From contig CAIQNQ010000103.1 of the NCBI GenBank assembly GCA_903873165.1, positions 8,387 through 72,386 of the forward strand: DNA of 64,000 bases, written 5' to 3'. A program made the translations under genes and the position numbers. The stretch is from an uncultured Methylococcaceae bacterium (GTDB lineage: Bacteria; Pseudomonadota; Gammaproteobacteria; Methylococcales; Methylomonadaceae). The notes beneath the pieces are model-generated. The model had not been told where the DNA came from. It saw nothing but the letters and a program-made list of their open reading frames with translations, and made no database searches. The stretch's first letter is position 1, and every line of letters begins with the position of its first letter. Below are positions 27,542 through 62,914 of the stretch, piece by piece.

Positions 27542-27586
27542 AGCACAGTGCTTTTTTTATGCTCATCTTTGTTGGAGTAATAGTCT

Positions 27587-30144: not shown

Positions 30145-30151
30145 GATACAA

Positions 30152-30463: not shown

Positions 30464-30556
30464 AATTTAATCTAGCCAGTATGGGCGCTCCATAAGATTA
30501 CGAGAAAAGATGGTAGGTGAGATTGCAAAAGCAATAGGCAATAAAAAACCCCTAAG

Positions 30557-30584
30557 CGATTTAACTGCAAAAGCAGTTAAATCG
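30557..30584. repeat. 12-bp perfect stem hairpin (CGATTTAACTGC aaaa GCAGTTAAATCG) just upstream of hsdR
   Basis: Read directly from the sequence. No T-tract follows it. Confidence 0.8.
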
Positions 30585-30677
30585 AAAGGAGCCGTGTTGA
30601 TGACCATTCTACTTAATCGACACAACTAAGCAAGTTTTTAATAAAAATCGGAATTGCTCGCCTACAGGAAGCGCACT

Positions 30678-46577: not shown

Positions 46578-46603
46578 AAAAGTGTGTCATATGACACAGT
46601 TTT
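46578..46603. promoter_or_regulatory. palindromic regulator-binding site S1 (AAAAG TGTGTCAT ATGACACA GTTTT)
   Basis: The core at 46583-46598 is a perfect 16-bp palindrome. It is one of six related copies in the window. Confidence 0.7.
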
Positions 46604-46609
46604 TTTAAC

Positions 46610-46635
46610 AAAAGTGTGTCATATGACACACTTTT
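46610..46635. promoter_or_regulatory. palindromic regulator-binding site S2 (perfect 26-bp palindrome AAAAGTGTGTCAT ATGACACACTTTT)
   Basis: Read directly from the sequence. The centre-to-centre distance from S1 is 32 bp. Confidence 0.7.
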
Positions 46636-46694: not shown

Positions 46695-46710
46695 TGGCGC
46701 TATTTTTGCA
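46695..46710 (+). promoter_or_regulatory. sigma54-type promoter (TGGCGC-TATTT-TTGCA)
   Basis: GG at 46696-97 and GC at 46708-09 have the canonical 12-nt offset. The match to TGGCAC-N5-TTGCW is near-consensus. It lies about 50 nt upstream of the ATG at 46760. Confidence 0.6.
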
Positions 46711-46759: not shown

Positions 46760-47509
46760 ATGCAAAAAAAGATTAGTTTATTAAAGCTAGGCTTAAATGT
46801 TATAGGGATACTTACAATAATATCTTCAGTTAACGCAACAGAGTTGGCTAAGCGTAAAGATGCGAATAATTTTTCTCAAGTAGCACTGCAGATAGCCCAA
46901 ACTCAGCACTTAAGATTGCATTATCCAAGTCATTTGAGCAATAAGTCGGTTAATAATAAATGCCCAGAAGATACCATTGATAAAGTTGTTACTTGCTTAC
47001 TAGGCGGTGCATTTATAGATATGGTTATTAAGAGTAAGTTTGATGGTAAACCGGAAGAGGTTTGGATAGTCGATAGTCAAAATACGCATAACAGCGTTGC
47101 AAAAAATCAACTAGTGAATGTTGATGAACATAATGTCGCAAATGATTCTGCTGACTTATTAGCATTAGCACAATCTGAAGACGCTTTAGAAAGATCACAA
47201 GCTATTGGTAATATGGCAGTCTCAGAAATTAGTGACCCCATTTTAGCTAAAAAGATTCTATCAGATGCTTTAGAAGATAAAGATCCAGACATTCGGGCTA
47301 AAGCGGTTAATAGTGTAACTAAAGTGGACAATGAAAATGCTAGGTCTGTATTACTTCGTATGCTAACAGATAAAGAAGTTAGTGTTAGGCTAGCTTCTGT
47401 TGTTGCTGCCTATAATGATGAAGAAGTATTACATATGGCAGAAGGAGATAGTGATGAGCAGGTTCGTATGTTGGCTGAAATTAGTTTAAATAAGTTAAAA
47501 AGCCAATAG
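46760..47509 (+). CDS. secreted HEAT-repeat protein (copy 1)
   Basis: Signal peptide, then a C-terminal half with HEAT/PBS-lyase-like repeats (ALEDKDPDIRAKAVNSV, LTDKEVSVRLASV, DSDEQVRMLAEISL). Confidence 0.7.
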   Translation: MQKKISLLKLGLNVIGILTIISSVNATELAKRKDANNFSQVALQIAQTQHLRLHYPSHLSNKSVNNKCPEDTIDKVVTCLLGGAFIDMVIKSKFDGKPEEVWIVDSQNTHNSVAKNQLVNVDEHNVANDSADLLALAQSEDALERSQAIGNMAVSEISDPILAKKILSDALEDKDPDIRAKAVNSVTKVDNENARSVLLRMLTDKEVSVRLASVVAAYNDEEVLHMAEGDSDEQVRMLAEISLNKLKSQ

Positions 47510-47682
47510 TTTTTGAATCTAATATGACGGATTTAAACGGATGGTAGATTAATAAATGGGAATTTTATTAAGGTATTTTTCCAAAATCAAGAATACTTAA
47601 TATTTTGAGTACAAAATGATTAAGCATACCGTTGAAAAGGCATTGGTCTTTTTAATTTTAGTAATAAGTGTGGAGTTTAGAA

Positions 47683-48384
47683 ATGCAAAAAATTAAATTA
47701 GTAAAGGCAATGTCTTTGGCATTATTGAGTTTAACTACAGTGGATATAGCTTCTGCTCATGATTTGTTGGGTGGATCATTGGCTGCCGCGCAAAACTCGG
47801 TAGATGTTTTTACTACTAGTTGTTTTAGTTGGAATGGTGCGGTGCCCAATGCAGCAACGGGAATTACTTATGGCCCATTACCCGCAGGTGAAGTTGTAAC
47901 ACCAGCGAGGGGGTTTAAAGCGGCTATTAGTTTGACTGCTGGATCAACAGTGACGGCTACAATTGGTTATACCTCAGTAGGCAATATCAATGGTAATGCT
48001 GTAGGTAATAATGTATTACCAGCATCACCAGCACCTAAAGCACTCGTGGTTACTGATACTACTTTAGGTTCTGCATGGAATAAAACTAGCACGATTCTTC
48101 CTGAGTTTAATGCGTTGGGCGTGTCACCTAAAGGATTTGGTCCTGCCGGCTTTTTAGATATTACAGGTGTAGCACCTACAAAAACAAACAACGGGAATGG
48201 TGAGTACGTTATTGTGATCTCTCATGCTTCTGCGGTGGCAACTAAATATGATTTTCTAGGTCATTGTCAAACTGGCACTAGCGGATCTCTTACTGGTATT
48301 CATACAGGTCAAGGTGCAAATTTTGTAAAAGCAGGAAATCAAGTTGCGCCAACTTTTGATTATGATCAACTTATTGATCAATAG
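47683..48384 (+). CDS. secreted protein of unknown family, predicted to mature with N-terminal His (copy 1)
   Basis: The ATG at 47683 has a GGAG SD. The signal peptide MQKIKLVKAMSLALLSLTTVDIASA is followed by HDLL. It shares the conserved islands TSCFSWN, ISHAS, GHC, GIHTG and a terminal LIDQ with the 57258-57971 paralog. Confidence 0.65.
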   Translation: MQKIKLVKAMSLALLSLTTVDIASAHDLLGGSLAAAQNSVDVFTTSCFSWNGAVPNAATGITYGPLPAGEVVTPARGFKAAISLTAGSTVTATIGYTSVGNINGNAVGNNVLPASPAPKALVVTDTTLGSAWNKTSTILPEFNALGVSPKGFGPAGFLDITGVAPTKTNNGNGEYVIVISHASAVATKYDFLGHCQTGTSGSLTGIHTGQGANFVKAGNQVAPTFDYDQLIDQ

Positions 48385-48527
48385 GTTAAGTAAAGAAGTA
48401 AAATAATATTTTAACTCGATTGAAAGATACAACAAAATATTTAAACGCCCTTTAAAGGGCGTTTAATGTTTAATCTACGGTAATGAATTTAGATGTGTCT
48501 AGATAGATTAAGGTTTTATAAATAATC

Positions 48528-49280
48528 ATGAAAGAATTAAATTGCTTGGTATTAATCTTAATAATTAATATCAGTTCTCTAGTGCATGCAGACAACTTTC
48601 AATTGAAAAGTAATGAACAAAAGTCTAGCTATGCATTAGGTGTGGATTATATGAATGGTCTATATCAAGACAATCTAGCCTTGGATAATAGGGCTTTTTT
48701 GCAAGGCATAAAAGATGTGCAAGCGGGCTTGGGTTCTCGTCTTAACCCCGAAGAACAAAGACGAGCATTAAATTTTTTTATTGTAAAACGCCTTAAACAA
48801 AGACAGTTGCAAAGCGACGCTACTTTGGCTCAAGGTAAAACTTATTTGCTTGAAAATAAAAAGCATTCGGGTGTTAAAGAACAACCGAGTGGTCTTCAGT
48901 ATAAGATATTAAAAATGCCTAATAGTCAACAACAAGTCACTAGCTCAGATGGCGTTGCTATACGTTATCGACTATTTGATATCAAAGGTAAACAGTTAAT
49001 GGCATCACCTGAAGGTAATAGCCAAAAATTAGTGATAAACGCAATTTTTCCTGGTTTACAAGAAGCGTTATTGTTAATGAAAGTAGGTGAAAAAATTGAA
49101 GCAGTGATACCTCCTGAACTGGCTTTTGGGGTTAATGGTAGTCCAGATGGCTTAATTAAGCCTAATCAAACTCTAGTCTATGAGTTGGAGTTGGTAAGTG
49201 TTATTTCTGCGGAACAGGCAAAAGTTGAAATGGAAAAACCCACATTAGTGGGTGGCAAGCCAAATACTTTTGATCAGTAA
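48528..49280 (+). CDS. FKBP-type peptidyl-prolyl cis-trans isomerase (FkpA/Mip-like), periplasmic (copy 1)
   Basis: Signal peptide, an N-terminal dimerisation-type region (SYALGVDYMNGL) and a C-terminal FKBP domain (LVYELELVSV). Confidence 0.85.
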   Translation: MKELNCLVLILIINISSLVHADNFQLKSNEQKSSYALGVDYMNGLYQDNLALDNRAFLQGIKDVQAGLGSRLNPEEQRRALNFFIVKRLKQRQLQSDATLAQGKTYLLENKKHSGVKEQPSGLQYKILKMPNSQQQVTSSDGVAIRYRLFDIKGKQLMASPEGNSQKLVINAIFPGLQEALLLMKVGEKIEAVIPPELAFGVNGSPDGLIKPNQTLVYELELVSVISAEQAKVEMEKPTLVGGKPNTFDQ

Positions 49281-49324
49281 TCTATAATGATAAAGTGTTA
49301 TTATTTTTTAAAAAGCAACAAGAT

Positions 49325-49543
49325 ATGAAAGTTAAAATACTCATCATTCTATTATTCATTGGTTTTTTTCTTACAGGTTGCGCTGAAGTAAAACCTTGGC
49401 AGCGGGGTAATTTAGCTAAGTCCATCATGGCTAATGACCCATCTCCTTTACAATCTTCTTTTAGACAGCATAATTATTCCAGCCGAGAAGCGGCAGGTGC
49501 TACTAGTTCTGGAGCAACTGGTGGTGGTTGTGGCTGCAATTAA
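49325..49543 (+). CDS. DUF4266 family lipoprotein (copy 1)
   Basis: MKVKILIILLFIGFFLTGC lipobox, VKPWQRGNLAK, HNYSSREAA and a terminal GGGCGCN, which is the characteristic DUF4266 pattern. Confidence 0.8.
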   Translation: MKVKILIILLFIGFFLTGCAEVKPWQRGNLAKSIMANDPSPLQSSFRQHNYSSREAAGATSSGATGGGCGCN

Positions 49544-52343
49544 GTCAAAATCTAAATATGTCAAAAGTGCTACTTTACAAGCTTTATGCCTATCAGCATT
49601 GACATTGCCAGGCCTGTCCATTGCTGATAATGCTGCAGGTACTGATGCCAGTATGCATGGTAAATCAAATACCAATTCAGCAAGTGAGACACCTAAACAA
49701 AGTCTTAAGCAATCAGATGCTTTTGATGAAATTGATTACCAATATACTATTTATCAAGAGGGTAAGCGTGATACTTATGATACAGCGCCTTACACTATTG
49801 ATAATAACGGCATCATGACTTCAACTGGGCCTTATAAATACCAAACAAATTTACAACCTATCACTGTGGATAGTGAGCATGCCTCCAGTCGTTTTCGGTT
49901 TGGTGATAGAACACGCTTTGGGTTTAATTATGTACAGGATGTTTGGTCAGGTGCTACGCCTTGGTTTACTACGGCGGCGGGCAATTTTATGATTAAAGCA
50001 AATCCTCAATCTTTAGTGGGAGCTACTTATTGGGCTAATGGCGCGGGTGGTGGGCAGTTATTTGATGCAAAGAATAAGCCATTAACCTTGGCCGCTTTTG
50101 ATACGAATACGAGTACTATTCTCGCAACCAGTCCTTCTCGTATTCAACATGTATTAGGTTATGCCTCACCTGAAATGCGTAATCAGGCGGATTTCAAGTT
50201 AGGATATGACTTTGATCATGCTGCATTGGATATTGGTGGTGGATTATCTGTTGAACGTGATTATCTATCGCAATTTGGAAATTTGGCAGGGCGCATGGAC
50301 TTTAATCAAAAACGTACAACCTTAAATTTTGGGTTGAGTTATACCAATAGTGCGACACACGCTACGTCCACCACAAATTCTTCTAGTGGAACAGTATTAG
50401 ATCCCAGTGTTAATGTCAGTCAACACCAAGCTATGTCGATGTTACCTGGTGATGTTCCTGTTTATGAGCAAATTATTAAAGGTACGCGAGAGGATGGAAC
50501 TATTTCTTTAGCACTTAGCCAAGTGTTAACTAAAAACTCAGTGCTTACTAGTGGTGTTGGTTATACACGTAGTAGTGGTTATATGAGTAATCCTTATAAA
50601 GCAGTCATGGTTTATAATATGGATCCTAATTGGCGATCGGATGGCGGCTCTGGAGCCGTGCTGCCTGATACGGCTTTTCCGGGAGTGCAAATGGCAACGA
50701 GTGGTGGCCCAGTTGCGGAACAGCGGCCGCATTTACGAAATCAGTTAAACTGGGATATCTCTTATCGGCACTATATTGAACCTTTAAATGCTGCCGGCAA
50801 AGTTGGGTACAACTTTTTTCATGATGATTGGGGTATTAACGCACACAGTTTCGATGCTGAATGGCGACAAGCCTTAGGTGATAGTTGGACACTTACGCCG
50901 CATACCCGATATTATTCGCAATCATCGGCTAGTTTTTATACCCCCTACCTTTTATATACTAATGGGGATGTGAGTCCACAAGATCCTGGTTATTTAACAC
51001 CTCTTGCAAGTCAGCATTTTTCTTCTGACCAACGCTTATCATCTTATGGTGCCATTAGTGGAGGGATAACTTTGGGTAAGCAATTAGCGCAAGGTTTAAA
51101 CCTTGAGTTAGGTTACGAATATTATGTCCATAAAGGCGCACTGGCAATAAGTAGTGGCACAGGAGATTACGCTGATTATCATTATTATGCAGCAAGTGCC
51201 ACTATGCGAGTTAATCTCGATCAACTGTCGTTAAGAGGCGGCGCTTATGATAATTACGGACTCTCGGATTGGTTAGGTAATCTGTTTGGTGGAAACGATG
51301 TTGAATCTATTAGCGCTAACTCAAGTCATCAACATAATCATGGTCTAGCTCCTGCGGGGGTTATGTTCTCTCACATGCTTTCTCATGCAGGTGAAACTAT
51401 GGTGGGTTATCGTTATATGCGCGATACGCAGAGTGGTAATTATTTACAGGGCGCTCAAGCGTTAAGTTCGACTCAGCTTACTAATTCTCAGGCTTGTATG
51501 CCATTGGGTCAATGTACTATGCTTTCTAATAGCATGGACATGAATATGCACATGGTTGATTTGATGTATGCTCCCACGGATTGGCTAAATTTGATGTTGA
51601 TGCCGCAGTTTATGTCAATGTCGATGGAAATGAATATGCCAGTTGCTATGTCCATGACTGCAATGGGTGGCGGAATGAATATGCCGGCTTTACGTGATTT
51701 TCAAGGCAGTGGTGGATTTGGTGATACTGGGGCGTATGCTTTATTCAAGCTATGGGATGGTGATGGACAACATTTACATCTAACTCAAGGTATCAGTGCG
51801 CCGACGGGTGCAACGAATATTCGTCAGAGTTCTCCGGGTGGTCCAGAATATTATTATTCTTATGGCATGCAACTAGGTAGTGGTACTTGGGATTATAAGC
51901 CTAGTTTGACCTATACGGGAATTTTGAATGATTGGTTCTGGGGTGGGCAGGTGAGTGGTACCCATAGATTGGAAAATTTAAATAATCAAGGTTATAGGCA
52001 GGGTGATATTTTCCAGACCACGGCATGGGGTGGCTATAAATTGACGCCTTGGCTTAGCTCTACCATACGTGCGGTTTATACTGCACAAAGCAAAATGGTT
52101 GGCACTCATACAAATGTGAATACAGTTGCTGGAGTACCTATGTGGATGCCTGAAGACAATCCAAGTAATTATGGTGGCTTCTTTGTTGATGTCGGCTTCG
52201 GTGCGACAGTGAGTATGCCTTATGGCAAACTGGCTGGTCATTCTTTAGGGTTTGAATGGTTGCAACCTGTTAGCACTAATTTCCAAGGCTATCAGTTAGA
52301 TAGAGCAGGGGCTTTGTCTGCGACATGGAATTATAAGTTTTAG
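49530..52343 (+). CDS. DUF3570 domain protein fused to a C-terminal His/Met-rich beta-barrel-like domain (copy 1)
   Basis: DUF3570-like motifs are present (VQDVWSGATP, GYMSNPYKAV, EQRPHLRNQ, FHDDWGINAHSF, RYYSQSSASFY, SSDQRLSSYG). A roughly 390-aa extension follows, with a Met-rich tract and a terminal aromatic residue (..WNYKF). The GTG start at 49530 (VAAIKSK..) is chosen by analogy with the paralog start MAVIKTP. This gives the same 14-nt overlap with the DUF4266 gene. Confidence 0.7.
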   Translation: MAAIKSKSKYVKSATLQALCLSALTLPGLSIADNAAGTDASMHGKSNTNSASETPKQSLKQSDAFDEIDYQYTIYQEGKRDTYDTAPYTIDNNGIMTSTGPYKYQTNLQPITVDSEHASSRFRFGDRTRFGFNYVQDVWSGATPWFTTAAGNFMIKANPQSLVGATYWANGAGGGQLFDAKNKPLTLAAFDTNTSTILATSPSRIQHVLGYASPEMRNQADFKLGYDFDHAALDIGGGLSVERDYLSQFGNLAGRMDFNQKRTTLNFGLSYTNSATHATSTTNSSSGTVLDPSVNVSQHQAMSMLPGDVPVYEQIIKGTREDGTISLALSQVLTKNSVLTSGVGYTRSSGYMSNPYKAVMVYNMDPNWRSDGGSGAVLPDTAFPGVQMATSGGPVAEQRPHLRNQLNWDISYRHYIEPLNAAGKVGYNFFHDDWGINAHSFDAEWRQALGDSWTLTPHTRYYSQSSASFYTPYLLYTNGDVSPQDPGYLTPLASQHFSSDQRLSSYGAISGGITLGKQLAQGLNLELGYEYYVHKGALAISSGTGDYADYHYYAASATMRVNLDQLSLRGGAYDNYGLSDWLGNLFGGNDVESISANSSHQHNHGLAPAGVMFSHMLSHAGETMVGYRYMRDTQSGNYLQGAQALSSTQLTNSQACMPLGQCTMLSNSMDMNMHMVDLMYAPTDWLNLMLMPQFMSMSMEMNMPVAMSMTAMGGGMNMPALRDFQGSGGFGDTGAYALFKLWDGDGQHLHLTQGISAPTGATNIRQSSPGGPEYYYSYGMQLGSGTWDYKPSLTYTGILNDWFWGGQVSGTHRLENLNNQGYRQGDIFQTTAWGGYKLTPWLSSTIRAVYTAQSKMVGTHTNVNTVAGVPMWMPEDNPSNYGGFFVDVGFGATVSMPYGKLAGHSLGFEWLQPVSTNFQGYQLDRAGALSATWNYKF

Positions 52344-52388
52344 CCTTCGCCTATAATAGAACAAGGCTTAATTGCCTCACTAGACACT

Positions 52389-53294
52389 ATGAAAGCCAAG
52401 AAGCTTAAGCAATTTAACTATCACTTTAATGCTATGGGCACTCAGTGTGAAATCCAGCTTTTTAGTGAGCACCCCGGCAGAGCCAATCGACTCGGTAAAC
52501 GCATTATTGCGGATGTCGAGCGCTTGGAGGCAAAATATTCGCGTTATCGGCCAGAAAGCCAGTTAAGCCAAATTAATAATGTGGCCTTATTGGGCGGTAG
52601 TATTGCGGTGGATGATGAGACAGCCGTTTTGCTTAATTATGCTGAAACTTGTTATCAACAAAGTGATGGCTTATTTGATATTACCTCTGGCGTTTTAAGG
52701 GGCGCATGGCGATTTCATGCTCAGCGCTTACCGACTCAAGCAGATATAGATCCCTTATTAGAAAAGGTGGGTTGGCATAAGCTAAATTGGCACATGCCTA
52801 GGCTAGAGTTTACTCAGCCCGGCATGGAATTGGATTTAGGAGGGGTGGTAAAAGAATATGCTGTCGATAGAGCTGCCACTTTATGTAGAGAAGTCGGTAT
52901 CAAAAGTGGATTGATAAATTTAGGGGGTGATATCAGGTTAGTAGGCCCCAGAGGTGACGGTGAGCCTTGGATAGTTGGGATTGAGCATCCTCGGAAACCG
53001 AGTTCTGTGTTGATTAATTTGTCCGTAACGCGTGGCGCATTAGCAAGCAGTGGGGATTATCAACGCTGTATTGTTATAGATGGCATTCGCTATGCGCATA
53101 TTCTTAACCCCAAAACGGGTTGGCCAGTTAAGCATTTAGCGGCTGTTAGTGTTATGAGTGATTTTTGCGTCGTAGCCGGTAGCGCCTCAACCATTGCCAT
53201 GCTTAAAGAGGAGCAAGGCCCTGAGTGGTTGAGGCAATTAGGTTTACCGCACCTGTGGGTCGATATTAATGGTAAACAGGGCGGTGATTTATAA
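52389..53294 (+). CDS. apbE: FAD:protein FMN transferase (ApbE family)
   Basis: FNAMGTQCEI, GLFDITSG, LDLGGVVKEYAVDRA, INLGGDI, SSGDYQRC...HILNPKTGWP and AGSASTIAM motifs. No N-terminal signal peptide is visible. Confidence 0.88.
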   Translation: MKAKKLKQFNYHFNAMGTQCEIQLFSEHPGRANRLGKRIIADVERLEAKYSRYRPESQLSQINNVALLGGSIAVDDETAVLLNYAETCYQQSDGLFDITSGVLRGAWRFHAQRLPTQADIDPLLEKVGWHKLNWHMPRLEFTQPGMELDLGGVVKEYAVDRAATLCREVGIKSGLINLGGDIRLVGPRGDGEPWIVGIEHPRKPSSVLINLSVTRGALASSGDYQRCIVIDGIRYAHILNPKTGWPVKHLAAVSVMSDFCVVAGSASTIAMLKEEQGPEWLRQLGLPHLWVDINGKQGGDL

Positions 53295-53334
53295 AGCAGT
53301 TTTGAAAATTACGAGGTATTTATTAGCTAAACTA

Positions 53335-54093
53335 TTAGGGCTGTTTCCAGCTTGACGTGGGTTTTAGATCGCTAGTTTGTGAGGCGATTTTTTCCACAAT
53401 ACTCATCAGTTCAACCTCATAAATCAGGACTTCATTCGGCGCTAAATGGCCGGGGGCACCCGTTTCACCATAGGCTAGATTGCTTGGTACAAACAATTGC
53501 CATTTACTGCCTTCGGTCATTAACAACATAGCCTCCTTCCAGCCAGGCACCAAGCTGGCAATCTGCACCTCGGGTACTTTTGCAGAGGTTAGCGTATTGG
53601 TTAATTCTTTGCCATCCAGTTGCGTGATTTTAAAGCGCACCTGGGCTGATTCTTTTAGTGTCGGTTGACGCGATGATTTGCCGGGAATTAGCACCTTGTA
53701 CTGTAAGCCACTGGCGGTCGTAATAACGCCTGGTTTTTGCTTGTTCTCTGCTAAAAATGCCTCACCTTTAGCCAGATTTAAGGCACCCATTTTTTCATTG
53801 TACTTTACGTGTTGTACAAAAACCCAGTCCTGGCCTTTTAGCAATTCGTTCGGATTAAGGCGTAACGGATGCTTGTTTAGTACATCATTCATACCTAACA
53901 CAAACAAACTCTGATCCAGTGGAATCTCGCTTTTTTGCAAGTTTTGCAAATAATTAACCCCTTGCGCATAGCTGGATTTTTGCTGATCTGATTGCAGGAT
54001 TGGTTCGGTGATAACCGATTTGGTAGGTGGCGTCGCTGCGCAACCTGTTAAAAAACTGAAACACAGGGCTGTGAAATAAGTTTTAGCTTTCAT
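53335..54093 (-). CDS. FKBP-type peptidyl-prolyl isomerase, lipoprotein (copy 2)
   Basis: Lipobox FLTGC, SYAQGVNYLQNL and a C-terminal FKBP domain (LIYEVELMSI). Confidence 0.85.
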   Translation of the reverse strand: MKAKTYFTALCFSFLTGCAATPPTKSVITEPILQSDQQKSSYAQGVNYLQNLQKSEIPLDQSLFVLGMNDVLNKHPLRLNPNELLKGQDWVFVQHVKYNEKMGALNLAKGEAFLAENKQKPGVITTASGLQYKVLIPGKSSRQPTLKESAQVRFKITQLDGKELTNTLTSAKVPEVQIASLVPGWKEAMLLMTEGSKWQLFVPSNLAYGETGAPGHLAPNEVLIYEVELMSIVEKIASQTSDLKPTSSWKQP

Positions 54094-54139
54094 GGATCCT
54101 CTTAAAAATAAAAATTTAAATAAAAATTAACAACCGTTA

Positions 54140-56884
54140 TCAAAACCCAACGCCCCACGTTGCAGTTAATGCGCCACTGCGTTCTAATTGATAGCCGTTA
54201 TAGTCGGTGTGTACCGGTTGCAGCCATTCAAATTTGAGGGTATTGCCGGCAAAAGTACCTGTGGGTACTGTCACATTAATGCCCAAACCGACATCCACAA
54301 ATTGACCGCCGTAGTTACTGGTAAATTGGCTAGGCATTCGATAGTTGCCGAATTGGTTATAGGGGATTGTACTGCCATCAGTCATGACTACGGGCTTGAG
54401 TACCCCATGAATACTGTCCTGCCAGGTATAGATGCCACGTACGTTAGCAGACAACCAGTTATTCCATTGATAACCACCCCATATGCTGCTCTGGAAGATA
54501 TCACCTAAGGCATAACCGGATTCATTGTGTTTATCTAAGCGTTTGGTACCGGTAGCCTGAGCGCCCCAGATAATGGCTTCCATTGCGCCACTGTAGGTCA
54601 AGCTGGGTTTAAGATCCCAGGTGCCACTGCCCAGTTGCATGCTGTAATCGAGTGGAATGATTGCAGCGTTAGAAGTGTTCTTTTTCTGCATCAGTGAGAC
54701 ATTGCCGGTGGGCGCGGTGCCGCCTAGGCTTAGGGTGAGCTGATGACCGTGTTGTTCAAATAGTTTGATCAGCGCATACAAACCGGTATCGCCAATGCCG
54801 CCGGATTGTTGATTCATTACGGGCATATCGAGGCCCATGCCAGTAGTGCTGCGTTTCATCTCTGACTGGTTCATTTTCATATCCATATCCGTCCATTGCG
54901 GCATTAGCATTAGTGTTACCCGGTCAGTGGCGGCCACCATCAGCTCCAGCATGTGCATATTCATAGTCATAGTGCTGGGTAACATCATGCAGGTTTGATC
55001 AGCGCAACCCTGTGCAATGGCCGTATCGTTACTGGCTGTCGACGTGCCAGACAGCATAGAGCCAGATTGTTCGTTACGCATGTACCGGTACCCCGCCATC
55101 ATATCGCCGGCATTATCCAGCGCATGATCAAACATGATACCGGCTGGCGTAATGGCATGGCTGGCATGGTGATGAGCTGTGCTGCTGCTATCGTTGCTAC
55201 CTCCATTAAAACGCAAAGCACCCAGATTGATTTTAAGTGCGGCATTGGCCGTCCAATAATCAAAATTATTGAACGCCTGTTCACTACCGCTACCACCACC
55301 CAACTTTAAGGCACTCTGATGCGTGTAATATTCAAACCCAGCTTGCAGACTGATGCCTTTGGCGAATTGTTTTGCTACGATGACTCCACCACTCAGAGCA
55401 CCAAAACCTGCCAAACGCTGGTCGCTGGAATAATAATCCGGTAGGGCTTTGGAATAGATGACATTACCTGAAGCATCATACCCTGACATGGTTGTCGTAA
55501 AATACGGGGCATAAAAATCCGCTGCCGATTGCGAGTAATAACGTACTTTGGGGGTGATTGTCCAGCCGGCACCTACCGGTTGCGCCCAATCGGCCTCAAA
55601 CGTATGAGAATTAATGCCCCAATCATCATGTGCCCCCGTGTAACGAGTATGCAGCGCAGCGTTGAGCGGCTCAATATAATAATGGTAGCCCAGATTGCCG
55701 TTGACCTGATTGCGCTCATGCGGGCGAGCCTCCCATTGACCTGCTCCGCTGTACATTAATGGTTGGCTTGGATCCTGACCGGGGTTGGCGTGAAACACAT
55801 ACACCGCCTTGTAAGGATTACTTAAGTAGCCAGTGCTATGGGTAAAACTCGTTCCCACATCCATTACGGCGTTTTGGGTCAGAATCTGGGTTAGGCCCAA
55901 ATTACCAGCGACATCTTGACGAGTACCGGTCAGGGTAGTTGTTTGTGCACCAATCATCCCTCTGTTAGGAAGGCTTGTTGTTACCTGATGATAAGTACCT
56001 TCGGTCTGAGGACTGTAGAAGTTACGCGTTGTAGTATTGCCATTGACGGTGCTGCCGTTAAAGGAATAGGGGCCACCAGCCATGTAAGTCACAGCAAATG
56101 GATCCAGGGTGGCGTGGGTATAACTGTTGGTATAGCTTACGCCGGCATTGAGGCTGGTGCGTTTTTGGTTAAAATCCAGGCGCAAACCCAGATTACCGAA
56201 GCGCGAGTCATAATCATTTTCTACCGAATAGCCACCGCCGCCGTTAACGCTGGCGTTATCCCAATCATAATCCAGTTTAAAGTCGCTTTGTTTGCGGGTT
56301 TCTGGCGAGGCGCCGACCAATACATTAGTCACCTGGTTGACTATAGCACCGGGTGTAAACGTACTACTCCCCGTATTAGGATCATAATGATAGTTTTGGC
56401 TATGAATATTATTCTGTTTGTCTATATAGAAAGGATTAGAATTTGTGTTACGTAACAGAGGTGAAGCACCAGTAATGGCATTAGTGACAGGGTTCGATAC
56501 CGGACTCGCTGCATTCGACACGACCGGCGCAGAGGCAATCGGTGTGGCTCCGGCCCAGGTATCCTGAGTGTAATTAAACGCAAACTTGACCCGGTCAGTC
56601 AGGTGAACACGAGAACTACCATGTAAGCCATCTACTTCGATCGGGTTTAAATAATTGGGTGTTTTACTGGACGTGAATGTGCCAGTAGGATTTACATTGG
56701 TATAAATATTGCGGTAACCTTCCTGGTAATGGCTGTACTGAAAGTCCACTTCATCTTCATCGGCTGCGTAAGCTGGGGCTTGCATTAGGCCGGGCAGGAT
56801 TAAGGCCGCTGCGGTTAATGCTTGTAAATTAGACTTGCCACGAGAGGGTGCTTTGGGTTTTTCGGGGGTTTTAATTACAGCCAC
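54140..56884 (-). CDS. DUF3570 domain protein fused to a C-terminal His/Met-rich beta-barrel-like domain (copy 2)
   Basis: 914 aa and collinear with copy 1, sharing FNYTQDTWAGATP, GYLSNPYKAV, EARPHERNQ, AHDDWGINSHTF, RYYSQSAADFY and SSDQRLAGFG. The tracts HHHASHAITPAGIMF and MMLPSTMTMNMHMLELM...MLMPQWTDMDMKM follow. It ends ..WGVGF. Confidence 0.75.
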   Translation of the reverse strand: MAVIKTPEKPKAPSRGKSNLQALTAAALILPGLMQAPAYAADEDEVDFQYSHYQEGYRNIYTNVNPTGTFTSSKTPNYLNPIEVDGLHGSSRVHLTDRVKFAFNYTQDTWAGATPIASAPVVSNAASPVSNPVTNAITGASPLLRNTNSNPFYIDKQNNIHSQNYHYDPNTGSSTFTPGAIVNQVTNVLVGASPETRKQSDFKLDYDWDNASVNGGGGYSVENDYDSRFGNLGLRLDFNQKRTSLNAGVSYTNSYTHATLDPFAVTYMAGGPYSFNGSTVNGNTTTRNFYSPQTEGTYHQVTTSLPNRGMIGAQTTTLTGTRQDVAGNLGLTQILTQNAVMDVGTSFTHSTGYLSNPYKAVYVFHANPGQDPSQPLMYSGAGQWEARPHERNQVNGNLGYHYYIEPLNAALHTRYTGAHDDWGINSHTFEADWAQPVGAGWTITPKVRYYSQSAADFYAPYFTTTMSGYDASGNVIYSKALPDYYSSDQRLAGFGALSGGVIVAKQFAKGISLQAGFEYYTHQSALKLGGGSGSEQAFNNFDYWTANAALKINLGALRFNGGSNDSSSTAHHHASHAITPAGIMFDHALDNAGDMMAGYRYMRNEQSGSMLSGTSTASNDTAIAQGCADQTCMMLPSTMTMNMHMLELMVAATDRVTLMLMPQWTDMDMKMNQSEMKRSTTGMGLDMPVMNQQSGGIGDTGLYALIKLFEQHGHQLTLSLGGTAPTGNVSLMQKKNTSNAAIIPLDYSMQLGSGTWDLKPSLTYSGAMEAIIWGAQATGTKRLDKHNESGYALGDIFQSSIWGGYQWNNWLSANVRGIYTWQDSIHGVLKPVVMTDGSTIPYNQFGNYRMPSQFTSNYGGQFVDVGLGINVTVPTGTFAGNTLKFEWLQPVHTDYNGYQLERSGALTATWGVGF

Positions 56885-57092
56885 AACCGCCTCCTTGTGA
56901 GTTATTTGCCGCTGAAGCTGCCTCGCGGCTACCGTAGTTATGCTGACTCAACCCGCTTTGCAAGGGATAAGGATCCAGTGCCATGTGTGGTTTGGCCAGG
57001 TTGCCGCGCTCCCAGGGCTGAACGCTGGTGCAGCCAGTGAGTACTAGCAGTACGTAAACCAGTAATAGGTGATGTAAAACTATTTTGTCCAT
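56871..57092 (-). CDS. DUF4266 family lipoprotein (copy 2)
   Basis: MDKIVLHHLLLVYVLLVLTGC lipobox, VQPWERGNLAK, HNYGSREAA and a terminal GGGCGCN. It overlaps the DUF3570 start by 14 nt. Confidence 0.8.
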   Translation of the reverse strand: MDKIVLHHLLLVYVLLVLTGCTSVQPWERGNLAKPHMALDPYPLQSGLSQHNYGSREAASAANNSQGGGCGCN

Positions 57093-57257
57093 GTATTCCT
57101 TTGAGTAAAGCGTTGCAATCTGCGATAACAATTAAGCCAAAAACTTTTTTAGAAAAAGCCGGTAACTCGTAGGAGCTACCGACTTTTTGGTAATGCAATA
57201 ATACCTACCGTTGTTTAACTTAAGCAGGCCTGTGTTATCGTTGTGATGACTATGGAT

Positions 57258-57971
57258 TTATTGGTCAATGAATTGATTCCAATCAGCTGCTGTAGTACCG
57301 GAACCATTGGGTACATCAATAAAGCTGTTGGGGTTAGCGCCAGTATTCACCCCAGTACCTGTGTGAATACCCACAGAAGAATCGGGCGCTGGGAGTGCGC
57401 CTACCGCCACGTTTTCGCAGTGAAAAGTGGCTAGATAATTAGTCGCCACACCCGGAGTATGAGAAACGGCGACGGTGTAAGTGCCGTTAGCATCTGCGCC
57501 TAAATTATCTTTTACCTGTGCCCAGGCGCCAGCATTGGTTCCGTCGCCCCATAAATTAGGAATAACAGTGCCATCGACCAAAATCCCACCGCTGTTAACC
57601 GGAACCCCTGTTGTTGAGGATACGCCAGCTAAAGGGGTATTTCCGAATGGAGAGCCGACGGATACTTTTACTTTAGAGGTGGCGCCACTAAGCGCAGTCG
57701 GAGTGCAAGTTGCATCGAGTGTTGAACAGCGATGATACGCCCTGGCCACAAAGCGTTTAGCAGCGGCTGTCGATTCGCCGCCGGCTGCCGCTGCACCTGC
57801 TGCGTTCCACGTAAAGCAACTGGTGTGATACACGTCAATCTCAGAGGCTGTGCCAGCATCCGCCGCCGAGAGTGTTCCAGGTGCTGTATGCGCCATACTT
57901 ACATTAGACAGGCTTATTGCACATAGCATAGCAGTTGATAATAATGTTAGTTTTAGAGTATTATTTTTCAT
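57258..57971 (-). CDS. secreted protein of unknown family, predicted to mature with N-terminal His (copy 2)
   Basis: The signal peptide ...LSNVSMA is followed by HTAPG. It shares the conserved islands TSCFTWN, VSHTP, FHC, GIHTG and a terminal FIDQ with copy 1. Confidence 0.65.
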   Translation of the reverse strand: MKNNTLKLTLLSTAMLCAISLSNVSMAHTAPGTLSAADAGTASEIDVYHTSCFTWNAAGAAAAGGESTAAAKRFVARAYHRCSTLDATCTPTALSGATSKVKVSVGSPFGNTPLAGVSSTTGVPVNSGGILVDGTVIPNLWGDGTNAGAWAQVKDNLGADANGTYTVAVSHTPGVATNYLATFHCENVAVGALPAPDSSVGIHTGTGVNTGANPNSFIDVPNGSGTTAADWNQFIDQ

Positions 57972-57992
57972 AGGAATCTCAATTTAATGGAT

Positions 57993-58031
57993 TAAAAAAA
58001 TGCCGACGCGCTATTTCGAGTTGCGCTCGGC
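57993..58031 (-). terminator. intrinsic-terminator-like hairpin between HEAT2 and the His1-protein gene (minus strand)
   Basis: The minus strand reads GCCGAGCGC..loop..GCGCGTCGGC followed by CATTTTTTT. The T-tail ends about 22 nt before the ATG at 57971. Confidence 0.5.
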
Positions 58032-58118
58032 CGGTACACTTATCACCATTGATAGGTGTACTTGCTTTTGCTGTCGGCGTACGGACTAGGTACGTCGACT
58101 ACAAAATCTTTGCTAGGT

Positions 58119-59009
58119 TTATTGTTGTCCATTACGTTCGCGGTAACGAAGCAACATACCTAATTTATCAGCCGCGTAATTGCTGACACTTTTATCACTA
58201 TCATTCTGGGCCTGTTCCAGCAGATCCTGATTATTGGCTGCACTTTCAATTGCCGCCATGCGCACGCTACTGTCGGTATCCTGTAAACCACGACTAATAA
58301 TTTCCTTAGCATTGTCTTTGTCTAATGCCGCCATTGATGACAAGGCCTGACTGCGGATGGTGGGGTTTTTATCCCCCATCGCCTCGGTAAGTGCTGCACG
58401 CACATTTGGATCATTAATATTGGCGCCTGCCGTTAAATAACTGAGGGCATTTTTACGTTCTTCTGCGGTTTTGGCTTCTTTAAGACCGGTTAATAGGGCA
58501 TCGGAGTATTCTTTATTGGGTGGTTCCGGTTTTCGTTGGGAATTATCGATACCAGATTCAGTTTTTATGGATACGGGTGTGGATTCAATCGTTAAGGTCT
58601 GACAACTACCAACACTGGAACCTAGTAGCCAAAATTCTGCGGGTTTGCCGGGTTCCGGTTTGTTTGCTACCAAGCCAATTTGCTTGGCCAGCAAGCAATC
58701 CATTAATTGCCAAACGTTTGTGCCAGCGCAAGTCGCCGTTACCGGCGCTTCTGGTAATGCGGAGTAATGAAAAATTGCACCAGTTTTACTGGCAATTTCA
58801 TTAAGGATTTCCCCCAGGGGCATTTGCCTTACTTCTAAACTGATCGGGCTGTCTGCTTGTGTCGATAACACAAGTTGAATGCTGGGTTGTATCGTCGGCG
58901 TTACCACGGGTTTATCTTTTACCGTTTCAGCAAGCAAGGGATTGCTAGACAAAAAGCTCCCAACCATTGAAACGACCAAGCTTATATATTGCGTATATTT
59001 AATGATCAA
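58119..59009 (-). CDS. secreted HEAT-repeat protein (copy 2)
   Basis: TTG start with a signal-like N-terminus. The C-terminal half carries HEAT-like repeats (MGDKNPTIRSQALSSM, LQDTDSSVRMAAIES, DSDKSVSNYAADKL). Confidence 0.65.
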   Translation of the reverse strand: MIIKYTQYISLVVSMVGSFLSSNPLLAETVKDKPVVTPTIQPSIQLVLSTQADSPISLEVRQMPLGEILNEIASKTGAIFHYSALPEAPVTATCAGTNVWQLMDCLLAKQIGLVANKPEPGKPAEFWLLGSSVGSCQTLTIESTPVSIKTESGIDNSQRKPEPPNKEYSDALLTGLKEAKTAEERKNALSYLTAGANINDPNVRAALTEAMGDKNPTIRSQALSSMAALDKDNAKEIISRGLQDTDSSVRMAAIESAANNQDLLEQAQNDSDKSVSNYAADKLGMLLRYRERNGQQ

Positions 59010-59103: not shown

Positions 59104-59934
59104 TTAAAAAGCCCGCACAGCCCGGACAGGAGCATAGGCATTTTTAGGAGCGTATCCAGCGTCACCGTAGTAGAAGTCGTAAGTCCAGGCCCCCAAGTCG
59201 TCGCTTTCTGAAGAACTCCAGAAGGAAGTACTGTCTGATTTAGTAATACCTCCTACCCCATGATCCGCTAAATTCTTATACATTAGAGTAAGTTCGTTAA
59301 TTGATGGTAAATACCAATCACTTTTATTGGCTGTTAAATAAAGATCAGCTTGCTTGGCTGCACCCGTTGAGCAAGCTCCAAGCATGGCTGTGGTGTTCGC
59401 CTTACCAGCACCTAAAGCTCTAGCAGACCAAGCCGCTACCTGTGGAATTGAGGTGTTGGTAATATTACACCACTGGGTAACTGCTATATCAGTCGGAGCG
59501 GCTTCCAGATAATTAAAGCCTGGATATTCATCGTTATAATCAACAAAGAATATCCAGCCCCCACCGGGACCTACCTCGCCAACTTTACAAGCCACTTTGC
59601 CACTGGCACCACAAGTCATAGAATAGGCAAATGAACTTCCAGAGCCTGAAGAACCTGCAGGCCCCATAGCCCCTGTAGCCCCCATAGCCCCTGTGTCACC
59701 TTTTGCGCCAGTGGCCCCCGTCATTCCTATCGGTCCCTGAACTCCTGGCTCACCTTTAGCTCCTTTTGGGCCTCTTGGTCCAATAGGTCCTCTTGGACCT
59801 CTAGTTCCAGCGGACGATGCCGTTGCTAGCCCTTGAACGCCCACAGCGTCTGTTGCATCAGCAACACTCCATAATGATGACAATATCAGTGCTGACATAA
59901 TCATTGGTATTTTTAATAACGATAATATTTTCAT
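59104..59934 (-). CDS. secreted collagen-like triple-helix repeat protein with DUF1566 (Lcl-type) C-terminal domain
   Basis: Signal peptide, then about 19 uninterrupted G-X-Y triplets ([40 protein letters not shown]...). The C-terminal domain contains [14 protein letters not shown], which is typical of DUF1566. Confidence 0.75.
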
Positions 59935-60031: not shown

Positions 60032-60047
60032 AGCAGGTTACGTGCCA
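60032..60047 (-). promoter_or_regulatory. sigma54-type promoter (minus strand TGGCACG-TAAC-CTGCT)
   Basis: The reverse complement of 60032-60047 has canonical GG/GC spacing and a near-consensus -24 box. It lies about 100 nt upstream of the collagen-like gene start at 59934. Confidence 0.6.
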
Positions 60048-60218: not shown

Positions 60219-60234
60219 AGTGTTATATGACGCA
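60219..60234. promoter_or_regulatory. palindromic site A (AGTGTTAT ATGACGCA)
   Basis: Three mismatches to TGTGTCAT ATGACACA. It is flanked by AAAGC and GTTTT. Confidence 0.55.
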
Positions 60235-60248
60235 GTTTTATAGATAAG

Positions 60249-60264
60249 TGTGTCATATAACACA
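60249..60264. promoter_or_regulatory. palindromic site B (TGTGTCAT ATAACACA)
   Basis: One mismatch to the consensus. The centre is 30 bp from site A. Confidence 0.65.
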
Positions 60265-60267
60265 AGT

Positions 60268-60933
60268 TTAGCCATCCAGAATATCTATAACTGTTTCGCA
60301 GCTAATTTCGTTTTCAGTGCTATTGCCTATAAAATAGGCCAATCTTTCAATAGCCTGCCAATAAATAGCTGTGTTGATAAATTCAAAAGCTTCCCTAAGT
60401 AGTCGCGTTATGTTTTCTGAATGACGCGACTTATCCGCAATAAAATCATCGAGATACTCCTGAATATTTTCTAGATCAGAACTACCGCCATATTGGTGTA
60501 AGGTATTTATCTCGATATTTTGTAAATCAAAACGCTGCCCACTTTTAAGGGCTAGATATTTGGCTTCTGCTAATGGCCCCGCTAGTAGATTGACAATATC
60601 TGCCTCAAATGCGCTTTTAATACTATCTTTTTCGCTATTACTATAAAACATACTGCTTTCGATGATATTAAACGGTAGGTTTTGTATTAAGCGGCCTTCG
60701 ATCACTTGGGCAATATAATGTTTATCCCTAGGATCAATTTGATTTGAATTCGATAGTATGGATGATGAATTGCTTCTCAGATTTATCTGAAAATAAACGG
60801 GGGGTAAGTTTTTTTGTTGATTATTAAGATGTATGGCGGCCGCATGACCCGCTTCATGAAAAGCAGTTTTTAATAATAAGTCTTTATCAAAAAGGCTGTG
60901 GGTATGGTAGTTAATTGGGTGATTTCGTTTCAT
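60268..60933 (-). CDS. stand-alone M41 (FtsH-peptidase-like) HEAGH zinc metalloprotease domain protein
   Basis: 221 aa. AFHEAGHAAAIHL resembles the FtsH HEAGHA motif, and YGGSSDLENIQEY resembles the FtsH G.S.D...A segment. There is no AAA domain, TM segment or signal peptide. Confidence 0.55.
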   Translation of the reverse strand: MKRNHPINYHTHSLFDKDLLLKTAFHEAGHAAAIHLNNQQKNLPPVYFQINLRSNSSSILSNSNQIDPRDKHYIAQVIEGRLIQNLPFNIIESSMFYSNSEKDSIKSAFEADIVNLLAGPLAEAKYLALKSGQRFDLQNIEINTLHQYGGSSDLENIQEYLDDFIADKSRHSENITRLLREAFEFINTAIYWQAIERLAYFIGNSTENEISCETVIDILDG

Positions 60934-60951: not shown

Positions 60952-60978
60952 AAAAAAAAGCGGTCATAATGACCGCTT
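60952..60978 (-). terminator. intrinsic-terminator-like hairpin in the 5' leader of the M41-like gene (minus strand)
   Basis: 9-bp perfect stem AAGCGGTCA / TGACCGCTT with a 3-nt loop. A T8 run follows on the minus strand and ends about 18 nt before the ATG at 60933. Confidence 0.5.
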
Positions 60979-61107: not shown

Positions 61108-61123
61108 TGGCATAGTTACTGCT
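61108..61123 (+). promoter_or_regulatory. sigma54-like element (TGGCAT-AGTTA-CTGCT)
   Basis: GG at 61109-10 and GC at 61121-22 have the canonical spacing. It lies upstream, not downstream, of palindromes C and D, about 240 nt from the ATG at 61364. Confidence 0.4.
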
Positions 61124-61202
61124 TTATATTCCTTTCTTAATTTTTAAAGTCTCGGTTAATTGAGAGTTTTCAAGGCATACAAGCCATTAATTTAAATAGA
61201 GC

Positions 61203-61218
61203 TGTGTCATAAGACACA
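61203..61218. promoter_or_regulatory. palindromic site C (TGTGTCAT AAGACACA)
   Basis: One mismatch to the consensus. Confidence 0.65.
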
Positions 61219-61232
61219 ACTTTTAGCAAAAG

Positions 61233-61248
61233 TGGGTGATATGACGCA
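61233..61248. promoter_or_regulatory. palindromic site D (TGGGTGAT ATGACGCA)
   Basis: Three mismatches to the consensus, an AAAAG 5' flank, and a centre 30 bp from site C. Confidence 0.5.
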
Positions 61249-61302
61249 TAGTTCGTTAAGGCTGGGTAGCAGTCAATAGCACCCTATTTAAATAAGAATG
61301 AT

Positions 61303-61331
61303 TTGCATTTGCATATTTCTAAGGTTAGAAT
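61303..61331 (+). promoter_or_regulatory. candidate sigma70 promoter (TTGCAT-17 nt-TAGAAT)
   Basis: Hexamers with a 17-nt spacer, about 30 nt upstream of the ATG at 61364. Confidence 0.35.
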
Positions 61332-61363
61332 CTAATTAACTAACAAATAGTGGAGATAGGTGT

Positions 61364-62884: not shown

Positions 62885-62914
62885 TAGGTTACGGCTCTTT
62901 AGTGGAACTACACG

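Follow-up and report, generated by a model that had tools for sequence, protein, structure and literature searches.

A DUF3570 barrel fused to a COG4313-like Met/His barrel in methanotrophs, with a possible role in copper acquisition

Positions 46760-59009 of a 64,000-nucleotide stretch of DNA (the window) from an uncultured Methylococcaceae bacterium (assembly GCA_903873165.1, contig CAIQNQ010000103.1) carry two sets of envelope genes, each built around a very large protein with a DUF3570 domain. What is new at this locus is that DUF3570, a demonstrated target of flavinylation, is fused to a COG4313-like barrel rich in Met and His, and that such fusions are common in methanotrophs and Nitrosomonas. 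Beside the fusion stand a DUF4266 lipoprotein, a secreted HEAT-repeat protein, an FKBP and a secreted protein, His1, that belongs to a rare fold-orphan family with an N-terminal-His metal-site signature, and the two sets represent two old and diverged subtypes, A and B, co-resident at one locus. We tentatively read the module as one for reductive copper acquisition, a reading whose chances we put somewhat short of even.

The fused barrel, its flavinylation core and the copper link

Open reading frame (ORF) listing, translation and Pfam/NCBIfam scans recovered all eleven genes that a sequence-only reading of the window had claimed for this region, as follows.

46760-47509, plus strand: HEAT1, secreted, an N-terminal two-Cys domain and then HEAT repeats (Pfam HEAT_2, E 2e-9)
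47683-48384, plus strand: His1A, secreted predicted beta-sandwich, mature N-terminus His26, H-C-H-C-H pattern (no Pfam or PDB relative)
48528-49280, plus strand: FKBP1, periplasmic Mip/FkpA-type peptidyl-prolyl isomerase (FKBP_N 1.5e-18, FKBP_C 6.8e-15)
49325-49543, plus strand: DUF4266 lipoprotein 1, lipobox LTGC, C-terminal GCGCN (Pfam DUF4266, 5.7e-22)
49530-52343, plus strand: fusion 1, 937 amino acids, DUF3570 barrel, His-rich linker and Met/His-rich barrel (DUF3570, 4e-97)
52389-53294, plus strand: ApbE, flavin adenine dinucleotide (FAD):protein flavin mononucleotide (FMN) transferase without a signal peptide (Pfam ApbE, PF02424, 7e-76)
53335-54093, minus strand: FKBP2, Mip-type FKBP lipoprotein, lipobox LTGC (FKBP_N 2e-20, FKBP_C 1e-15)
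54140-56884, minus strand: fusion 2, 914 amino acids, architecture as in fusion 1, type-B subtype (Pfam DUF3570, 5e-103)
56871-57131, minus strand: DUF4266 lipoprotein 2, C-terminal GCGCN (Pfam DUF4266, 5.8e-22), its start probably an internal ATG near 57092
57258-57971, minus strand: His1B, type-B His1 member by homology, mature N-terminal His, FHCE and IHTGTG
58119-59009, minus strand: HEAT2, secreted, two-Cys domain and then HEAT repeats (Pfam HEAT_2, 5e-11)

The translations also bear out the proposal that every product except ApbE has a signal peptide or a lipobox. In both fusions the Pfam model for DUF3570 (PF12094, cutoff 25 bits) covers only the N-terminal approximately 570 amino acids, and the C-terminal approximately 340 lie outside it. 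An AlphaFold2 (AF2) model of fusion 1, with a predicted local distance difference test (pLDDT) of 81.5 and a predicted template-modelling score (pTM) of 0.75, has one beta-barrel spanning residues 67-562 and another spanning 623-936, with a disordered His-rich linker between them. The C-terminal barrel is modelled as a 12-strand fold like PDB 4rl8, with Foldseek matching it to the COG4313 channel 4rl8_C at E 3e-10 (TMt 0.72, root-mean-square deviation 6.3 Å) and to FapF at TM-scores of 0.62-0.72; for the whole fusion MtrB and 22-strand transporters were matched only generically. At the sequence level the C-terminal domain makes weak PDB matches to COG4313-type channels, and PF13557 reaches 19.8 bits against a cutoff of 22 (E 8.9e-4) on fusion 1, does not match fusion 2, and is the precomputed annotation on several of the barrel's stand-alone homologues. 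Fused and stand-alone barrels have in common the invariant motifs PAGVMxxH, MxMxMHMxDxMYAPTDW and LMxMPQ together with two Cys, and further a GD, an APTG, the sequence MQLGSGTWD and a terminal Phe. An identity as CopB or PcoB was considered for this domain and rejected, there being no CopB (PF05275) match even at E<=10 and no PcoB in a PDB profile search. A split DUF3570 and barrel pair in the related locus L091 was likewise discarded as Rosetta-stone evidence, since the 61-amino-acid ORF between the two matches the fusion junction; a frameshift in a long-read assembly probably accounts for the split.

The N-terminal half of the fusion belongs to a system already in print. Experiments with the DUF3570 of Chlorobium luteolum established that its cognate ApbE flavinylates it at two [S/T]GA[S/T] motifs (Méheust 2021, eLife 10:e66878, PMC8238504), and the same paper describes clusters of ApbE, DUF3570, a thioredoxin-like protein and a DUF4266 protein with a C-terminal CXC, with or without DsbD, for which a hybrid thiol/flavin extracytosolic electron-transfer system is proposed and the function "remains uncertain". 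The system as a whole is therefore not undescribed, as the sequence-only reading had it, because both the flavinylation and the cluster had been published; its description of DUF4266-DUF3570-ApbE as a functionally unassigned neighbourhood is outdated as to the flavinylation and holds as to the role. The literature naming DUF3570 and DUF4266, as far as its available text goes, yielded no copper or methanotroph link for either family.

The determinants of flavinylation seem to be kept in the window, where arm 1 (plus strand) has the GA[S/T] motifs SGAT and VGAT, with residues 143 and 166 as the candidate flavinylated Thr/Ser, and arm 2 (minus strand) has AGAT and TGAS. The G, A and T/S of motif 1 are kept in 113/113 fused homologues, and for motif 2 the figures are 104/113 for G, 110/113 for A and 113/113 for S/T, with the first position of both motifs looser than the rest. 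For the two arms there is a single copy of ApbE, sitting at the junction, and its stop-to-stop ORF leaves no room for a signal peptide either in the window or in 44 related loci. Both DUF4266 proteins combine a lipobox with the GCGCN end that supplies the C-terminal CXC (PF14086 at 6e-22). In each arm the DUF4266 stop and the DUF3570 start overlap by 14 nucleotides, as they also do in the called gene coordinates of Methylomonas, and this overlap suggests that DUF4266 and the fusion are translationally coupled.

The link to copper comes chiefly by way of the stand-alone homologues of the C-terminal barrel, which have their own signal peptide. Of about 16 informative metagenome loci, 14 have a DUF2946 ORF directly before such a barrel on the same strand, and L006, L090, L092 and L093 have one too; Pfam confirmed the family in 8 of 10 tested ORFs, 4 of them above the gathering score. 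DUF2946 corresponds to CruR (PMC9426467), a copper-sensing leader ORF that bears CXXC and RAPP motifs and terminates transcription of the copper-acquisition genes downstream, the known ones being TonB-dependent transporters, PepSY_TM, PCuAC, Sco, YcnI and CopC. In addition, HMA-DsbD_2 genes occur in two module loci, and Csp1-like proteins adjoin the barrel in L090 and the module in L091, these being kept as supporting context on the strength of a Tat signal and 13 Cys. The fusion itself is concentrated in Methylococcales and Nitrosomonas.

Distribution of the module and its two subtypes

Conservation was assessed in 77 genome loci holding a fused DUF3570, the best of more than 571 matching stretches from GTDB species representatives, and almost all of them are from Methylococcales, with Nitrosomonas, Methylotenera and one Burkholderiales metagenome-assembled genome (MAG) making up the remainder. 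At least 300 fusion proteins pass E 1e-5 among 8000 candidates scored, and among the 120 matches listed the fused homologues are nearly all of 800-1000 amino acids. That the envelope genes are conserved together, as had been surmised from the window, is seen in the presence of DUF4266 in 71 of the 77 loci, of HEAT in 45 and of ApbE in 42, and of a His1-family gene (broad hidden Markov model) at most 10 kilobases from the fusion in 64.

A thioredoxin-like gene is found in 50 loci and an FKBP in 11, with both in only 2 (n=77; Fisher p 9e-4), a pattern on which FKBP may be taken to stand in place of the thioredoxin-like gene in this window. In L011 (5712-12810) a DsbD beside a type-B module is apparently interrupted by a mobile element carrying an integrase and a primase, beyond which lie the thioredoxin-like C-terminal part of the DsbD and a DUF4266 gene. 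A membrane protein of about 517 amino acids, having an N-terminal multi-helix part and a weak spermidine-synthase/methyltransferase-like domain, is conserved near the module in 27 related loci (L030:13690-15243 and 26 others) and in the examined gene maps of thioredoxin-type loci it directly follows ApbE. It does not occur in the window, the 506-amino-acid ORF at 61364 having been compared with it and found unrelated.

The five paired genes of the arms are homologous and strongly diverged, as the sequence-only reading held, with BLASTP identities of 29% for His1A and His1B (E 9e-13), 29% for HEAT1 and HEAT2 (E 2e-22), 35% for FKBP1 and FKBP2 (E 4e-43), 40% for the fusions and 54% for the DUF4266 pair (the last two also with significant E). 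The near mirror image that it described is imperfect, the FKBP lying between His1 and DUF4266 in arm 1 and after the fusion in arm 2. The G+C content at third codon positions (GC3) of arm 1 is 0.24-0.32, the same as that of the flanking dut and argB, and is 0.41-0.52 in arm 2 and 0.41 in ApbE; fusion 2 is 64% identical to a Methylococcaceae MAG protein (P0304/L011) against 40% to fusion 1, and His1B is 66% identical to P0141 against 29% to His1A. The GC3 difference and the closer orthologues that each arm has in other Methylococcales rule out an in-situ inverted duplication and make the arms two old subtypes, of which arm 2 was probably acquired horizontally.

Some hundred fused homologues from the collected loci sort into three groups by subtype. 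Type A is a small clade that includes arm 1, Methylomonas paludis, Methylomonas sp. AM2-LC, L003 and L013; the gene order of arm 1 recurs in the last three, and M. paludis has the same genes differently arranged. Methylomonas sp. AM2-LC has three tandem DUF4266-DUF3570 pairs. Arm 2 falls in a type-B group with L011, L016, L047, L050 and others, where the order is HEAT-His1-DUF4266-fusion-FKBP, and L011, L047 and L050 repeat the order of arm 2. The third group, the majority, is of the thioredoxin type. Type-A loci end in ApbE and type-B loci in FKBP, and it is on this synteny that the ApbE of the window is assigned to arm 1.

Three to five tandem DUF4266-DUF3570-fusion pairs per locus occur in L010 (3132-12847), L019, L048 and L059, several with their own palindrome sets, a sign that paralogues of the outer-membrane component have expanded strongly. 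A secreted repeat protein of about 370-390 amino acids, absent from the window, is frequent in type-A loci (L001:6274-9821, L009:8507-9616, L010:14610-15710), and in M. paludis the tail of this protein is a hydrophobic helix followed by basic residues, like a PEP-CTERM-type sorting tail. L001 has in addition, between fusion and His1, a 632-amino-acid NHL/Vgb-lyase-like beta-propeller that does not occur in the window.

Associated families, regulation and surroundings

His1 has no Pfam, NCBIfam or PDB relative, whether searched as a single sequence or with profiles. Relatives are few, 11 in a word-indexed search of 5.8 billion sequences and 72 cluster representatives in a full profile search of 1.84 billion, and the AF2 model of His1A is a beta-sandwich (pLDDT 76). 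The residues that never vary among 43 diverse members are the His at the mature N-terminus, two Cys, the His beside the second of them, an Asp and a Tyr, and one more His is nearly invariant; the A-x-A ahead of the N-terminal His is likewise constant, the cleavage site being placed by the -3/-1 rule. In His1A the three His are His26, His194 and His207, counted from the start Met. The H-C-H-C-H pattern is kept in 61 of 74 members, and in P0006 and P0141, one from each subfamily, all three His are lost together. On sequence grounds this pattern is a predicted signature of a three-His metal site plus a disulfide. Assignments of His1 to DUF2271, FMN_bind, CopC, YcnI, the lytic polysaccharide monooxygenases (LPMOs) or CorA/MopE were each tried and dropped for want of any Pfam, NCBIfam or PDB match or any significant fold match.

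A second and unrelated secreted family with a mature N-terminal His (AFA/HTG...) and an HGC motif, of about 255-365 amino acids, is present in 37 of the 77 loci (for example L021:5815-6849 and L071:6635-7732), usually just upstream of HEAT where that gene is present; it has no Pfam or PDB relative and does not occur in the window. For this recurrent neighbour of the thioredoxin-type loci, identification with YcnI/DUF1775 or as a relative of His1 was rejected, with no Pfam or PDB match and an hhalign similarity confined to the signal peptide.

The HEAT family has an N-terminal domain of about 80 amino acids ahead of the repeats, in which two Cys and one Trp are invariant in 48/48 members. Both FKBPs consist of an FKBP_N dimerisation domain and an FKBP_C domain, FKBP1 with a signal peptide and FKBP2 with a lipobox, and the NCBIfam FkpA/FklB/BamJ models score below their cutoffs.

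The candidate regulatory elements, and the gene that may go with those of arm 2, are these.

46584-46597 and 46616-46629, no strand: two perfect 14-bp palindromes GTGTCATATGACAC, candidate enhancer/operator of arm 1
46695-46710, plus strand: sigma-54-type -24/-12 promoter, TGGCGC-N5-TTGCA, upstream of HEAT1
48441-48466, no strand: strong palindromic hairpin between His1A and FKBP1, 11-bp stem with 5 GC pairs, a possible attenuator or terminator
59104-59934, minus strand: secreted collagen-repeat/Lcl_C protein (Pfam Collagen and Lcl_C)
60032-60047, minus strand: sigma-54-type promoter TGGCACGTAACCTGCT, reading towards arm 2
60220-60263, no strand: second palindrome pair, GTGTTATATGACGC and GTGTCATATAACAC (starts 60220 and 60250), upstream of the Lcl-like gene

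The shared palindromes noted earlier from the window are real: with up to 3 mismatches allowed, GTGTCATATGACAC has 7 occurrences where 1.7 are expected. Pairs or triplets of it lie upstream of the module in 36 related loci, and TGGCAY-N5-WTGCW follows the palindromes in seven of nine inspected regions (L003, L023, L025, L032, L034, L048 and L050). This conservation in relatives backs the idea of regulation by sigma-54 and a shared palindrome. The predicted promoters fit GG-N10-GC (-24/-12) with paired upstream palindromes, as in sigma-54-dependent operons; no sigma-54 activator gene was found among the scanned ORFs of the window. The palindromes of arm 2 lie outside 46760-59009, upstream of the collagen/Lcl-like gene, and because promoter and palindrome pair are both upstream of it that gene may be the first of the arm-2 transcript. 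Lcl_C-like genes also occur near the module in L020, L030 and L049. A strong palindromic hairpin at 58033-58062, between HEAT2 and His1B, is the arm-2 companion of that at 48441-48466, and the two may set differing expression levels inside each arm.

Further along, a third palindrome set (61204, 61234) and a sigma-54-like TGGCATAGTTACTGCT (61108-61123) precede three genes in window 61108-63960, which encode a 506-amino-acid porin-like protein with a coiled coil that ends in GFGFIF (61364-62884), a 180-amino-acid secreted protein with a near-threshold FMN_bind match and the flavinylation motif DGISGATLST (62915-63457), and a 167-amino-acid four-helix His-containing membrane protein (63457-63960). 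They may form a second ApbE client system of the same regulon; none of the three was found near the module in other loci. Between two of the palindrome pairs lies a minus-strand ORF (60268-60933) of 221 amino acids with an HEAGH zinc-peptidase-like motif and no family match, and a strong hairpin followed by a T-run is present at 60958-60978. Upstream, window 25389-34591 encodes a YgjP-like metallopeptidase and all three subunits, HsdM, HsdS and HsdR, of a type I restriction-modification system. With the genes for an ammonium transporter, PPK2, DUF748 and DUF2782 these point to an ordinary chromosomal context. The argB of the window is 84% identical to that of a Methylococcaceae MAG, which makes a host within the Methylococcales most likely.

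Candidate functions and known systems

For reductive copper acquisition the steps may be pictured as follows. While still in the cytoplasm the DUF3570 precursor would be given its FMN by ApbE, and after export to the outer membrane the flavins would receive periplasmic electrons, in most relatives by a route from DsbD to a TlpA-like thioredoxin and on to the CXC of DUF4266, which would be a relay for electrons or else for Cu(I). The flavins would then reduce Cu(II) at the cell surface, Cu(I) would cross the Met/His-lined barrel, and in the periplasm a His-brace-like site of His1 would receive the copper. FKBP could be the dedicated folding or assembly chaperone of the giant barrel protein and HEAT a scaffold. 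The more specific proposal, that the module is a methanobactin-independent reductive outer-membrane copper importer, analogous to Fre1/Ctr1 and feeding the particulate methane and ammonia monooxygenases, we regard as doubtful.

How copper enters through the outer membrane of gammaproteobacterial methanotrophs and ammonia oxidisers is partly understood, with methanobactin and MbnT, and the surface proteins CorA and MopE, covering some species only. A widespread module that joins a demonstrated flavinylation substrate to a copper-linked channel is a concrete candidate for this passage, and would give the DUF3570/DUF4266 system, so far without a function, a plausible role. If reductive acquisition is right, organisms of high copper demand have here an acquisition route, and, copper supply being what controls methane-oxidising activity, the module is relevant to methane cycling and to methanotroph engineering. 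It would also follow that ApbE can flavinylate the precursor of an outer-membrane protein in the cytoplasm before export, and so quite how a cytoplasmic ApbE modifies an outer-membrane protein becomes a mechanistic question.

Copper had been named as the most obvious ligand from the window, and as a candidate it is now much better founded through the DUF2946 context and the conserved motifs, with a metal function still being inferred. Several observations pull away from reductive copper acquisition. No thioredoxin-like or DsbD gene came up when the 64-kb window was searched by tblastn using relatives' Redoxin, DsbD and HMA-DsbD_2 proteins; no DUF2946 precedes the fused genes, limiting the link to copper repression to stand-alone barrels; and a Pfam rescan did not reproduce the precomputed Csp annotation (PF03860). 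The conserved alternating Met could face lipid and not the lumen. Foldseek found nothing significant for His1 (best E 0.013, query-normalised TM at most 0.33), the comparison with CorA 4bz4 giving E 0.05 and TM 0.21. Sigma-54 control might point to nitrogen or another signal, and VIT1 iron transporters in 25 DUF3570 clusters hint at iron (PMC8238504, available text). Finally, with a leaderless ApbE, flavinylation of the exported barrel would have to precede Sec transport. Modification of an unfolded precursor in the cytoplasm is possible in principle because, as the available text of PMC8238504 has it, the flavinylation test was made on signal-peptide-truncated proteins in E. coli, with DUF3570 in the insoluble fraction.

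The rival that survives best, and which we still think unlikely, is an outer-membrane electron conduit serving respiration or extracellular electron transfer. In hypoxia the flavinylated DUF3570 barrel would act as MtrAB does and hand on electrons, received from periplasmic thiol/flavin carriers, to acceptors outside the cell such as Fe(III), Mn or humics, and the Met-rich barrel and His1 would be accessories with no specificity for copper. MtrB (6r2q_B, E 3e-11) is indeed the top Foldseek match of the fusion, but the TM-scores to it are low (0.22-0.30) and all large barrels score alike. DUF3570 is counted as an ApbE substrate among extracytosolic electron-transfer systems (PMC8238504, available text), and behind the same palindromes stand the neighbouring secreted FMN_bind-like SGAT protein and a porin, which would suit a conduit; the Met/His clusters, the DUF2946/CruR linkage of the stand-alone barrel and the conservation of His1 are nevertheless left unexplained by it.

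Detoxification of copper (or silver, or mercury) would have the barrel exporting or sequestering periplasmic Cu(I) in the manner of PcoB/CopB, His1 acting as a periplasmic copper buffer and the flavin/thiol part keeping the metal, or thiols of the envelope, in reduced form. Proteins that handle Cu(I)/Ag(I) typically have Met/His-rich motifs, and the HMA-DsbD_2 genes and nearby Csp-like storage proteins can be read in the same sense. However, neither a multicopper oxidase nor CopA, Cus or PcoA/C/D is among the recurrent neighbours in the 77 loci, the Pfam CopB match is missing, and CruR/DUF2946 operons are copper-repressed, not induced, and encode acquisition (PMC9426467, available text), so that this explanation strikes us as quite unlikely.

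A metal-independent envelope redox maintenance, in the form of the repair of oxidised Met or Cys of outer-membrane proteins, or of a sacrificial, antioxidant Met-rich barrel with a dedicated FKBP/thioredoxin folding set, would draw on the TlpA-like thioredoxin and DsbD of many relatives, on the alternation of FKBP with the thioredoxin-like gene and on the two invariant Cys of the HEAT protein. It is improbable, since it explains neither the DUF2946 leaders nor the N-terminal-His family, nor the Met and His that are invariant at particular positions, nor the taxonomic bias to copper-monooxygenase bacteria. Iron handling, with the flavinylated barrel reducing Fe(III) for uptake, is scarcely probable, Met thioethers being poor iron ligands and no VIT1, FTR1/P19 or TonB-dependent transporter being found among the recurrent neighbours of the fused form. 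The VIT1 clusters and a general flavinylation-iron link (PMC8238504) speak for it, and the copper specificity of the DUF2946 linkage (PMC9426467) against it, each within the available text of those papers.

Set beside known systems, the module shares with the MtrAB conduits a large beta-barrel in the outer membrane that may hold redox cofactors, but here FMN covalently bound to the barrel itself would take the place of an inserted decahaem cytochrome, the likeness being generic (TM 0.2-0.3). Eukaryotic reductive copper uptake uses the Fre1/Fre2 flavocytochrome reductases and the Ctr1 Met-motif channel. The logic proposed here is the same, Cu(I) being produced at the surface by a flavin-dependent reductase and admitted by a Met-lined pore; this is an analogy and not membership, since there is no homology and the present system would consist of outer-membrane beta-barrels with covalent FMN, taking electrons from periplasmic thiol carriers.

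The closest relation is to the system of Méheust 2021, with which the module shares ApbE, a DUF3570 with two GA[S/T] motifs, a DUF4266 lipoprotein with a CXC and an envelope location, as well as, in most relatives of the locus, a TlpA-like thioredoxin and, in some, DsbD. In contrast to that system, DUF3570 is fused here to a Met/His-rich barrel of about 340 amino acids, there are HEAT and His1 genes besides, the window has an FKBP in the place of the thioredoxin-like gene and no DsbD, the linked ApbE lacks an export signal and two subtypes are co-resident. The available text of PMC8238504 makes no mention of the fusion, of His1/HEAT, of FKBP, of a leaderless ApbE or of a copper role. In the CruR operons (Bordetella bp2923-bfrG-bp2921; mBio 2022) the slot of the outer-membrane copper importer is the one that the stand-alone barrel takes behind its leader, but a COG4313-like barrel is not named in the synteny of PMC9426467, as far as its available text goes, and the fused genes of the window are without the leader, having sigma-54 elements instead.

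Histidine-brace proteins (LPMOs, CopC, YcnI, the PmoB CuB site) and the methanotroph surface copper proteins CorA and MopE invite comparison with His1, which is a secreted predicted beta-sandwich with a mature N-terminal His, further conserved His and an invariant Tyr and Asp, and which occurs in methanotrophs. His1 matches none of them significantly in sequence or in fold, its copper binding being putative, and CorA and MopE employ a kynurenine along with two His (PMC3423442). The C-terminal barrel for its part shares its 12-strand fold with the COG4313/PF13557 channels, such as Pput2725 of Pseudomonas putida (PDB 4rl8), which the available text of PMC4493636 implicates in the uptake of hydrophobic molecules. 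It departs from these channels in its invariant Met/His/Cys clusters and His-rich N-terminal segment, and its subfamily occurs in two settings, as a fusion with DUF3570 and downstream of a copper-sensing DUF2946 leader.

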